From positions 9,052 through 73,051 of the forward strand of contig JBIOUG010000010.1 in the NCBI GenBank assembly GCA_044866775.1: 64,000 nucleotides of DNA. The letters are read 5' to 3'. Below are positions 3,001 through 6,000 of the stretch, in pieces. The stretch comes from Thermoanaerobaculia bacterium (GTDB lineage Bacteria > Acidobacteriota > Thermoanaerobaculia > Multivoradales > UBA5704). Below the pieces are notes generated by a model. That model searched no databases. It worked only from the letters and a program-made list of their open reading frames with translations, and had not been told where the DNA came from. The position numbers and the translations under genes were made by a program. Positions within the stretch are counted from its first letter, which is position 1; each line of letters starts with the position of its first letter.

Positions 3001-6000
3001 CGGCCTGCGCGTCTCGGCGCTGCCCCTGCTGGAGCCGGCGGAGCGCCACCAGCTCCTCCATGAATGGGGCGACCGCGCACCGCGGGAGGGGGAGCCGGAG
3101 TGCGTGCACCACCGCTTCGAGACCTGGGCGGCGCGCGCGCCGGAGGCCGTGGCGGTCACCTACCAAGGCAACCCGCTCACCTACGGCGAGCTCGATCGCC
3201 GGGCCAATCGGCTCGCCCGCCGTCTGCGACGGCTCGGGGTCGGCGAGGAAACGCGCGTGGGCGTCTGCCTGGAGCGCTCGGCCGACCTGGTGGTCGCCAT
3301 CCTCGGCGTCCTCAAGGCCGGCGGGGCTTACGTCCCGCTCGATCCCAACTACCCGCAGGAGCGCATCGCCTTCGTGCTCGAGGACGCGCGGGCCGCGGTC
3401 CTCCTGACCCAGGAGTCGCTGCTCGCGGCGGTCGGACGGTCCGCCGCGCCGGTCCTCTGCCTCGACGCCGACGCCGCCGCGATCGGGGAGGAGAGCGCGG
3501 CGCCGCTCGTCCCGGTGGGAGACCTCGACTCGCTCGCCTACGTCATCTACACCTCGGGCTCGACCGGCAAGCCGAAGGGGACGCTCGTCACCCACCGCAA
3601 CATGGCGCGGCTCTTCTCGGCGACCGAGCCCTGGTTCGGCTTCGGGCCGGGAGACGTCTGGACGCTCTTCCACTCCTGCGCCTTCGACTTCTCGGTCTGG
3701 GAGCTCTGGGGAGCGCTCGCCTACGGCGGGCGGCTGGTCGTGGTGCCGTTCGCCGAGAGCCGCTCGCCGCGCCACTTCCGCGAGCTGCTGGCGCGGGAGG
3801 GCGTCACCGTCCTCAACCAGACGCCGGCGGCGTTCCTGCAGCTCCAGCGCGCCGACGAGGAGGCGGGCGCGGAGCTCGGCGCCCTGCGCCTGCGGTGGGT
3901 GATCTTCGGCGGCGAGGCCCTGGACCTGCCGGCCCTCGCGCCGTGGTTCGCGCGGCACGGCGACCGTCTGCCGACGCTGGTCAACATGTACGGCATCACC
4001 GAGACGACCGTGCACGTCACCTACCGGCCGCTCTCGACCGCCGACCTCGGGACGGCCCGCGGCAGCGCCGTCGGCCGCCCGATCCCCGATCTCGCGGTCT
4101 ACGTGCTCGACCCGGCGACGCTCCGGCCGCAGCCGATCGGCGTGCCGGGCGAGATGGTCGTCGCCGGCGCCGGGGTGGCGCGCGGGTATCTCGGCCGGCC
4201 CGAGCTGACCGCCGCGCGCTTCGTGCCGGACCCGTTCGGCGGCGAGCCGGGCGCTCGCCTGTACCGCAGCGGCGACCTGGCGCGGCTGCTGCCGGGCGGG
4301 GAGCTCGAGTACCTGGGGCGGATCGACCAGCAGGTCAAGGTCCGCGGCTTCCGCGTCGAGCTCGGGGAGATCGAGGCGGCGCTGGCGTCGCATCCGGCGG
4401 TGGCGGAGGCGGTCGTGCTGCCGCGCGGCGGGGCCGGCGAGCAGCGCCTCGTCGCCTGGGTGGTCCCCCGCGCCGGCGGACCGGACGTGCCAGCACCGAG
4501 CGTGCTCGAGCTCCGGCGCCACCTGCAGCGCACCCTGCCGGACTACATGCTGCCGGCGGACTTCGTCTTCCTGGAGAGCTTGCCGCTGACCGCCCACGGC
4601 AAGGTGGACCGGCGGGCGCTGCCGGAGCCGGCGGGGGAGCGGCCGGAGCTCGAGCGCGAGCTGGTGGCGCCGCGGACTCCGGTCGAGCGGCTCCTGGTCG
4701 AGGCCTTCCGCCAGACGCTCCAGCGGCAGGAGGTCGGCATCCACGACGACTTCTTCGAGCTCGGCGGGAACTCGCTCGCCGGCGCGCGGCTGATCAACCA
4801 CGTGCAGGAGCAACTGGGGGAGATCGTGCACGTGGTGGCGATCTTCGACGCGCCGTCGGTGGCCGAGCTCGCCGCGCTGCTCGCGGAGCAGTACCCCGCG
4901 GCCGTGGCGCGGCTGACCGGCGAGGGCGCGGCGCGCGCGGAGGCCGTGGTGGTCCCGGTCGGCGCCGAGGACCTGGCGCGGCTGCGCGAGCTGATCGAGC
5001 GCGGCCCGCGCCGCGTCGCGCCGATCGACGTCGTGTCGCGGGGCGTCGACGGCGTGCCGGCCTCCGAGCCGAAGAACCGCCGCGCGGTCTTCGTCCTCTC
5101 ACCGCCGCGCTCGGGCTCGACGCTGCTGCGCGTCATGCTCGCTGGCCACCCGCGCCTCTTCGCGCCGCCCGAGCTTGAGCTGCTCTCCTTCGCCACGCTC
5201 GCGGAGCGGCGGGCGGCCTTCCCCGGGCGCGACAGCTTCTGGCTCGAGGGCCTGGTGCGCGCGGTCATGGAGCTGCACGGCCTCGACGCGGCGGCGGCGG
5301 CGCGGCTGATCGAGGAGCACGAGTGGGAGGGCTGGACGACGCGGCGCTTCTACGGCCGGCTCCAGGAGTGGCTCGGCGACCGCATCCTGGTCGACAAGAC
5401 GCCTGCCTATGCGCTGCATCCCAACATTCTGGCGCGGGCCGAGGAGCAGTTCGAGGGAGCGTTCTACCTCCACCTCGTCCGGCATCCGTGCGGCACCAAT
5501 CAGTCGTTCGAGGAGGCGCGGCTCGACCAGTTGCTGTTCCCCGGCCACGGGTTCGGCCGCCGCGAGATCGCCGAGCTGACCTGGCTCGTCTGCCACCTCA
5601 ACATCCTCCAGTTCCTCGCCGCGGTGCCGCCCGAGCGCCAGCTCCGCGTGCCCTTCGAGGACCTGGTGCGCGACCCGCGCCGCGTCATGGAGGAGATCTC
5701 GAGCCGCGTCGGGCTGCCCTTCGACGAGTCGATGCTCGAGCCCTACGCCAAGCGCAGCGCGCGCATGACCGACGGCCTGCACCGCGAGTCGCGCATGCTA
5801 GGCGACGTCAAGTTCCACCAGCACCAGGGCATCGAGGCGGGCGTGGCGGAACGCTGGCGCGGGAGCCACGACGAGGCGGCCTTGAGCGAGATGACGCGCC
5901 AGGTCGCGGCGTCGCTCGGCTACAGCCTGGGCGGCGCCTCGGCCGTGGCGATCGAGCGCAGTGGCTGGGAGCCTGGGACACCCTTGCCGCTCTCCTTCCA

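Follow-up and report, generated by a model that had tools for sequence, protein, structure and literature searches.

A sulfotransferase domain embedded in an acidobacterial nonribosomal peptide synthetase belongs to a recurrent family of modules predicted to modify carrier-bound hydroxy amino acids

The sulfotransferase domain and its module

The stretch of DNA analyzed here (the window) comprises 64,000 nucleotides of contig JBIOUG010000010.1 (assembly GCA_044866775.1), and its host is an uncultured, Thermoanaerobaculia-like soil acidobacterium. The G+C content is 70-77%, and the first 48 kb consist of three co-directional megasynthase genes, here called open reading frames (ORFs) 1 to 3. Our subject is a sulfotransferase (ST) domain encoded within ORF1 (2..24346; this and all other features located below are on the + strand), a hybrid nonribosomal peptide synthetase-polyketide synthase (NRPS-PKS) whose frame is open from nucleotide 2 and enters across the 5' edge of the window. 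Pfam searches on chunks of the protein, combined with Stachelhaus specificity codes, give the order ..A(Gly)-T / C-A(Thr)-T-ST / C-A(?)-T / C-A(Ala)+MT-T / C-A(Gly)-T / C-A(Ser)-T / KS-AT-T-TE, in which A is adenylation, T carrier, C condensation, MT methyltransferase, KS ketosynthase, AT acyltransferase and TE thioesterase. For the codes, each A domain was aligned to GrsA-PheA, for which the reference sequence gave the expected DAWTIAAICK; the substrates named throughout are predictions from these codes.

The ST domain (5081..5929) is fused directly C-terminal to a carrier domain and lies ahead of the next C domain, in the arrangement T-ST-C. A first-pass annotation of this DNA had placed a sulfotransferase of the type that uses 3'-phosphoadenosine 5'-phosphosulfate (PAPS) between the motifs FFELGGNSL (4751-4777) and HHVASDG (6389-6409), and both the coordinates and the motifs hold. 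It assigned the domain to module 2, a number that is valid only relative to the window because ORF1 runs off its 5' end. The A domain of the module (3107..4612; A3 motif at 3551, A4 motif FDFSVWELW at 3683, A10 motif at 4583) has the code DFWNIGMVHK, corresponding to threonine. It is followed by the T domain (4688..4924), which carries GGNSL rather than GGHSL around the serine codon at 4772-4774, contains LGEIVHVVAIFDAP and ends in the tail EQYPAAVARLTGE (4886-4924). A linker defined by alignment (4925..5080) leads into the ST, and the downstream C domain (5948..7310), which contains the HHVASDG motif, is of the ordinary type according to Pfam and to the clustering described below.

The identity of the insert is clear from several comparisons. 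It matches the Pfam family Sulfotransfer_3 (PF13469) with E=1.3e-24 over profile positions 2-216 of 216, and phmmer comparison with the PDB retrieves the ST of CurM (4gbm, E=3e-63) and that of an olefin synthase (OLS; 4gox, E=3.7e-59). An AlphaFold model (pLDDT 92.3) was matched best by Foldseek to 4gbm (E 1e-25, TM 0.89/0.94), then to 4gox, so that the profile search and the structural comparison both uphold the initial assignment. Alignment to CurM locates the 5'-phosphosulfate-binding (5'-PSB) loop at PPRSGST (5102-5122), in agreement with the early identification of SPPRSGSTLLRVML as this loop. The 3'-phosphate-binding (3'-PB) motif had been assigned to LVRDPRRVMEEIS (5663-5701), which was wrong; the alignment places it at HLVRHPCGTNQSF (5471-5509), where RHPCGTNQS (5480-5506) corresponds to CurM Arg161/His162...Ser169. 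The catalytic Glu equivalent to CurM E60 is encoded at 5171-5173 and the Lys equivalent to K133 at 5396-5398. All of the PAPS-binding residues are present, the equivalents of R39, S40, G41, T43, E60, K133, R161, H162 and S169 being conserved without exception. Glu60 of CurM is reported to be its catalytic base and Lys133 to be catalytic as well; their equivalents are invariant in 98 related STs.

One active-site position differs from CurM, in that the His62 located beside the catalytic Glu is replaced by a second Glu (5177-5179). Among 155 STs from an unbiased set of cluster representatives (described below), 123 have Glu here, 8 have Asp and 2 have His, and the count was read from this set only because the pattern used in our genome scan forced Glu or Asp at the site. 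Judged by this alignment, Glu at the His62 position is a clade signature. By sequence and modeled fold the domain is a bona fide member of the CurM structural family of PAPS-dependent sulfotransferases with its PAPS-binding and catalytic residues intact, and we predict it to be active. It is very improbable that it is catalytically dead or structural, or that it acts on another residue of the chain or on a free small molecule. The replacement of His62 would fit such a case, as would the fact that activity is read here from sequence and model, but Glu is the norm at this site in the family, the remaining residues are conserved and the fold is predicted with high confidence. Furthermore, the dN/dS of 0.25 relative to the closest relative (locus L001, 76% identical) indicates purifying selection, and the tight coupling to the side chain of the own module, with none to neighboring modules, also argues against it.

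Related modules and the residue acted upon

Two samples were used to place this domain among its relatives. A genome scan, in which each species was represented by one genome, gave at least 572 loci with relatives, of which the best 78, all from metagenome-assembled genomes, were analyzed; its retrieval patterns were derived from the ST clade of the window, the loci are phylogenetically related, and their domains were mapped with those of the window as tblastn queries. For the second sample, 1.84 billion cluster representatives (50%-clustered) were searched exhaustively with HMMER, which yielded at least 1,159 proteins at E<=1e-30; contexts were established for the best 150 of these, containing 155 STs. 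The 78 loci belong mostly to Thermoanaerobaculia, other Acidobacteriota, Holophagales, Pyrinomonadaceae and Blastocatellia, with some from Herpetosiphonaceae and Ktedonobacteraceae (Chloroflexota). They contain 98 STs, preceded by A-T in 85 cases and followed by C in 73 and by TE in 20. The representative set, in which 147 cluster representatives show them, has the same two architectures, A-T-ST-C in 50 cases and A-T-ST-TE in 31, and in at least 63 of the best 150 representatives at least 450 residues follow the ST, i.e., the domain is embedded mid-line in a megasynthase. A KS, AT or KR (ketoreductase) domain adjoining the ST was found neither in the window nor among the 98 and 155 related STs. 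A mid-line ST after an NRPS carrier domain had appeared to be a one-off; it instead represents a large recurrent family.

The carrier domains of these modules are distinctive too. In the 78 loci, the T domain ahead of an ST reads GG[NSDT]S in 97/97 cases and GGHS in none, whereas T domains ahead of C, TE or KS read GGHS in 73/85.

The identity of the adjoining A domain points to the substrate. In the 78 loci, the A domain before T-ST is predicted to load Thr in 46 cases, Ser in 21 and Tyr in 8, giving 75/85 compared with 10/124 for A domains without an ST (Fisher p=4e-34), and in the representative set the same residues account for 52/113 codes with an ST versus 9/68 without (p=4e-6); as the sequences are related and not independent, both p-values are generous. 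The pattern of own-module coupling nevertheless holds in the two differently sampled sets. Modules without an ST of their own show no enrichment for hydroxy residues on either side of an ST module (2/39 at n-1 and 3/45 at n+1), and action of the ST on a neighboring residue was rejected on this basis. The coupling to Thr, Ser and Tyr is confined to the own module. From these codes, the ST almost certainly acts in cis on the side-chain nucleophile of the residue carried by the T domain before it, in this case the β-hydroxyl of threonine, and the in-cis action on a hydroxyl first suggested for this domain is supported by its Thr code and by the behavior of its relatives.

The representative set includes further Tyr-like and Hpg-like (4-hydroxyphenylglycine-like) codes in ST modules. 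Two other ST-module codes, DIWELTADD and DVENVG..., are diaminobutyrate-like and ornithine-like, respectively, and thus probably for residues with amine side chains. STs located behind aromatic residues have substitutions in common; the position of CurM P141 is Leu in 9/10 of them compared with 4/68 Thr/Ser-linked STs.

Several variants of the architecture were observed. Single NRPS stretches may contain multiple ST modules, three in locus L003 and four in L013, and their products would be poly-sulfated (or poly-dehydro) peptides. Of the 98 STs, 20 belong to terminal A(Thr/Ser)-T-ST-TE modules, found in L005, L006, L010, L036, L040, L048, L050, L066, L077 and others, which may release either a sulfated C-terminal residue or, by CurM-like decarboxylative elimination, an enamide. 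In addition, there are many proteins of ~430 residues, mostly cyanobacterial, that share 48-52% identity with the window ST (e.g., P0055 from Anabaena sp. PCC 7108, P0059, P0060 and P0088); the source name of several of these homologs is 'acyl carrier protein', so they may be carrier-ST proteins that stand alone.

The window itself contains a natural comparison in ORF3, in which the equivalent module lacks the domain. ORF1 and ORF3 are colinear at 54-66% identity and look like the products of an old duplication; the sole large gap between them corresponds to ORF1 residues ~1646-1957, and confirms the absence of an ST from ORF3. At the homologous position, an A domain with a serine code (35631..37260; DVWHISLVEK) is followed by a carrier domain of the ST type (37356..37592) with GGNSI, LGEIVHVAAIFDAP and the tail EQYPAAVARLTGE (37554-37592), with no ST after it. 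The two T domains share GGNS[LI], LGEIVHV.AIFDAP and the same tail immediately before the gap. The ORF3 C domain (37695..39100), which shares 71% identity with its post-ST counterpart in ORF1, begins after a linker of 34 residues (37593..37694), not the ~60 residues counted initially. Within this linker, EAALDAITSDLAAVPG aligns at the protein level with ORF1 EAALSEMTRQVAASLG (~5866-5920), the last helix of the AlphaFold model, and is a remnant of that helix. At the DNA level, the local alignment of the linker with the 3' end of the ORF1 ST scores 25, compared with 15.3+-2.4 (maximum 23) for 300 shuffles.

The insertion/deletion difference noted in the first-pass annotation is therefore real, and its direction can be refined. 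Because ORF3 retains both an ST-type T domain and a C-terminal ST stub, an insertion in ORF1 was rejected in favor of a deletion in ORF3; ORF3 formerly had an ST and lost ~307 residues (~0.9 kb) by in-frame deletion. Orphan ST-type T domains directly before a C domain also occur in L014, L022, L057 and L071. Together with ORF3, these loci show that the ST has been lost repeatedly with the module and C domain left intact, as would be expected of an optional tailoring domain.

Fate of the sulfate

We propose that the A domain of the ST module charges the ST-type carrier domain with L-threonine, after which the ST would transfer sulfate from PAPS to the β-hydroxyl of the threonyl or peptidyl-threonyl thioester. 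The next, ordinary C domain would then hand on the O-sulfo-threonyl peptide, and the released peptide-polyketide would bear a threonine O-sulfate. We infer the timing of sulfation, on the carrier domain, and the sulfation step itself, the latter being highly probable. The complete proposal, in which threonine is O-sulfated in cis on the carrier domain and the product keeps the sulfate, we consider somewhat better than even, with a probability of roughly 55%.

The window ST has the same fold as those of CurM and OLS and belongs to the same sequence family (~40% identity, TM ~0.9), lies directly behind a carrier domain as theirs do in ACP-ST-TE (ACP, acyl carrier protein), and has the same PAPS loops and the equivalents of Glu60, Lys133 and Arg39. 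However, their upstream module is a PKS KS-AT-KR-ACP providing a β-hydroxyacyl substrate, whereas in the window it is an NRPS C-A(Thr)-T and the substrate hydroxyl belongs to an amino-acid side chain. The CurM ST is followed by a TE that hydrolyzes, decarboxylates and expels sulfate, the window ST by a C domain. Thus, three defining features of the CurM/OLS off-loading system, the PKS β-hydroxyacyl substrate, the CurM-type TE partner and His62, are lacking from the window ST.

By analogy with these enzymes, the sulfate could instead serve as a leaving group: the ST would sulfate the β-hydroxyl of peptidyl-Thr, and the sulfate would depart spontaneously by E1cB elimination or with the help of the C domain to leave dehydrobutyrine. 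This would be an NRPS counterpart of CurM-type activation and of the dehydration driven by phosphorylation or glutamylation in lanthipeptides, and we regard it as rather unlikely, although several observations point towards it. The two closest solved structures are both activating STs, sulfate leaves readily from the position β to a thioester, and in 67/85 ST modules of the close relatives the predicted residue is Thr or Ser, with no other residue able to eliminate. The carrier domains of ST modules are also non-GGHSL, like those upstream of dehydrating C domains (PMC10880069).

The distribution of the family argues in the other direction. In the ST tree, Thr-, Ser- and Tyr-linked STs are interleaved, as are C-followed and TE-followed STs, which can share 83% identity with one another. 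STs also follow Tyr and Hpg-like modules, and probably amine-loading ones, whose residues cannot undergo β-elimination, and their presence in the same family favors retention of the sulfate. The loss of the ST with retention of the module and downstream C domain is likewise at odds with elimination, and a 2023 review of dehydroamino acids names only dehydrating C domains for NRPSs, with sulfation unmentioned (PMC10880069).

The domains that receive the modified chain appear ordinary. A clustering of 226 C domains, combined with a scan of all columns of their alignment, revealed no specialized post-ST C domain: the post-ST domains were intermixed with ordinary ones from the same enzymes, and even the column with the largest difference (0.65 vs 0.28) yielded no discriminating residue. 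A specialized C domain after the ST was accordingly rejected for this set. Between Tyr-ST and Thr-ST modules, the C domains that follow reach 75% identity, and they are ~72% identical to ordinary C domains; the post-ST C motif in the window is AHHVASDG, not HHHxxxDG. The TE behind the ST in L066, the sole one compared, has an ordinary NRPS TE as its best PDB match (4zxh, 5e-25), with the CurM TE absent at E<=0.01; a CurM-type TE behind terminal STs was rejected for this one case. The window's own TE is also of the ordinary NRPS type. The ordinary character of these C and TE domains favors retention over elimination. The known routes from Ser/Thr to dehydroalanine or dehydrobutyrine involve dehydrating C domains (AmbE-C2, AlbB-C2/C3, LgnD-C2 and NocB-C5) or lanthipeptide dehydratases, the latter first activating the hydroxyl by phosphorylation or glutamylation (PMC10880069). 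The window appears to differ from these systems, in that no lyase or elimination domain is present, the post-ST C domains form no clade apart from the ordinary C domains of the same enzymes, and the motif is not HHHxxxDG. Of the two outcomes first put forward for this locus, a sulfated peptide is therefore favored and a CurM-like leaving group is less likely, given the Tyr-linked STs and the ordinary C and TE domains.

There is precedent for retention in the cyanobacterial NRPS loading modules of cyanopeptolin (OciA) and dysinosin (DysB), where STs are likewise integral to the NRPS polypeptide and the sulfate is retained (PMC2533009; PMC6520454). The products of these embedded STs are stable sulfate esters. 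OciA and DysB differ in that their STs act on a glyceric-acid (GA) starter from an N-terminal FkbH-like/GA domain, whereas the window ST stands behind the amino-acid A domain of an elongation module. No FkbH-like/GA loading domain was detected by Pfam in ORF1-3. The next-best relatives after CurM and OLS are the tyrosylprotein sulfotransferases TPST1/2 (sequence E ~4e-4; Foldseek E 1e-8), whose substrates are peptide side-chain hydroxyls; these are Golgi enzymes that modify free proteins, at Tyr only, and are ~20% identical. A carrier-bound NRPS peptide is also the reported target of SulN from sulfazecin biosynthesis, which is said to be a free-standing enzyme that performs PAPS-dependent sulfonation in trans before release. 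SulN reportedly produces an N-sulfonate on a diaminopropionate nitrogen, enabling β-lactam formation by the TE, and so differs from the window ST in being free-standing and in sulfonating nitrogen in trans.

A number of points weigh against retention of a threonine O-sulfate. The nearest solved relatives of the family, CurM and OLS, are 'activating' STs whose sulfate is later expelled. A β-sulfate beside a thioester-activated α-proton is primed for E1cB elimination; a special C domain may therefore be needless, which weakens the argument from the ordinary C domains. The specificity codes are predictions, and the p-values given above overstate independence, the 78 loci having been found with patterns from the window's own ST clade. 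The ST-type T domains, lacking GGHSL, resemble the GGDSx 'T_E' carrier class, which has been tied in a review to epimerizing or dehydrating partners (PMC10880069). Finally, Thr/Ser O-sulfates are extremely rare in peptides (PMC13514629).

It is also conceivable that sulfation is transient, with the on-line sulfate acting as a self-protection, pro-drug or export tag that is later cut by a sulfatase to leave the mature compound unsulfated. Self-protective sulfation has been documented for the allopeptimicins (PMC9169493), and the frequent gain and loss of the ST suggests a modulatory role. Nevertheless, the 16 kb downstream of the cluster contain no sulfatase gene, and we consider this scenario improbable.

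The surrounding cluster and the significance of the family

ORF2 (24664-30780) has the Pfam architecture A(FkbM-MT)-T / C-A-T, and ORF3 (30789-48311) has four C-A-T modules followed by KS-AT-T-TE. The predicted substrates are Gly, Thr, an unassigned code (DPRNFVHRAK), Ala, Gly and Ser for ORF1; Ser and Leu for ORF2; and Ala, Ser, an unassigned code and Ser for ORF3. The A domains at 7514-8940 (DPRNFVHRAK) and 39174-40660 (DPRNFVHQAK) have near-identical codes, and similar DPRH/N..LR. codes recur in acidobacterial loci. Two C domains (1727-3050 and 34254-35580) have HHIVTDDWS in place of the canonical HHxxxDG, with Gly replaced by Asp. An FkbM-type methyltransferase (PF05050, E 2.3e-15; ~26300-26900) is inserted in the Ser-specific first A domain of ORF2 (code DVWHISLVDK), which suggests O-methylation of that serine and hence a second in-line β-hydroxyl modification in the cluster. 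Both ORF1 (20555-24346) and ORF3 (44505-48311) end in KS-AT-T-TE without KR, dehydratase or enoylreductase domains, so each line would add one malonate after serine and release a β-keto product that may form a ring of the N-acyl tetramate or pyrrolinone type. Across the ~16,000 residues of NRPS in ORF1-ORF3 (2-48311), no epimerization domains were detected, in a search that did not examine dual E/C C domains.

The region downstream of ORF3 (48.6-64 kb) is mostly housekeeping (RlmL, TerC, ApaG, RNase D and MurJ), with a TonB-dependent receptor. A protein identical to this RlmL occurs in Logan run SRR30692710, to which a VWA protein also maps, and the closest named homologs, at 77-81%, come from metagenome-assembled genomes of Thermoanaerobaculia. 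Directly 3' of ORF3 is a gene for a 590-residue protein (48678-50447) with a weak PAP2 match (E 0.009), annotated as VCPO_2nd and vanadium haloperoxidase-like; the cluster may end with this gene. A molybdoenzyme of the sulfite-oxidase family (52353-53450; Oxidored_molyb 4e-55, with Mo-co_dimer) is encoded at a distance of 4 kb. Neither sulfatase genes nor genes for PAPS synthesis were detected within the downstream 16 kb, the upstream flank being beyond the window. The idea that sulfur-related or hydroxylase genes adjoin the cluster was rejected, as apart from the PAP2/VCPO-like protein and the sulfite-oxidase-family enzyme these 16 kb are housekeeping.

In its placement, the ST occupies the site in T-ST-C where an epimerase would sit, and it shares several features with the in-line NRPS tailoring domains for epimerization (E), methylation (MT) and oxidation (Ox): it is part of the same polypeptide, located between T and C or TE, recurrent, and tracks the substrate of its own module. 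We conclude that NRPSs have recruited it for in-line tailoring. In open-access papers and bioRxiv, we found no description of A(Thr/Ser/Tyr)-T-ST-C or of an ST in amino-acid elongation or termination modules; the only NRPS-embedded STs described in the literature searched serve starter units of sulfated glyceric acid (PMC2533009, PMC6520454). As a whole, the family of A(Thr/Ser/Tyr)-T-ST-C/TE modules thus appears to be uncharacterized.

If the sulfate were eliminated, these modules would constitute a third, previously unrecognized route to dehydroamino acids, besides dehydrating C domains in NRPSs and phosphorylation or glutamylation in RiPPs, present in hundreds of acidobacterial and chloroflexal assembly lines, and the terminal A(Thr)-T-ST-TE versions may release C-terminal enamides. 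If, as we favor, the sulfate is retained, other consequences would follow. Thr/Ser O-sulfation is regarded as enzymatically orphan (PMC13514629), and these domains would be the first dedicated peptide Ser/Thr (and Tyr) O-sulfotransferases with a gene in hand, with a substrate readable straight from the adjoining A domain. An 'ST' tailoring domain would join the rules for NRPSs, with relevance to genome-based structure prediction, and the T-ST unit would provide a portable cassette for sulfated-peptide engineering. Retention would also predict that Acidobacteriota and Chloroflexota not yet cultured from soil make sulfated nonribosomal peptides as a large class that has so far gone unseen.

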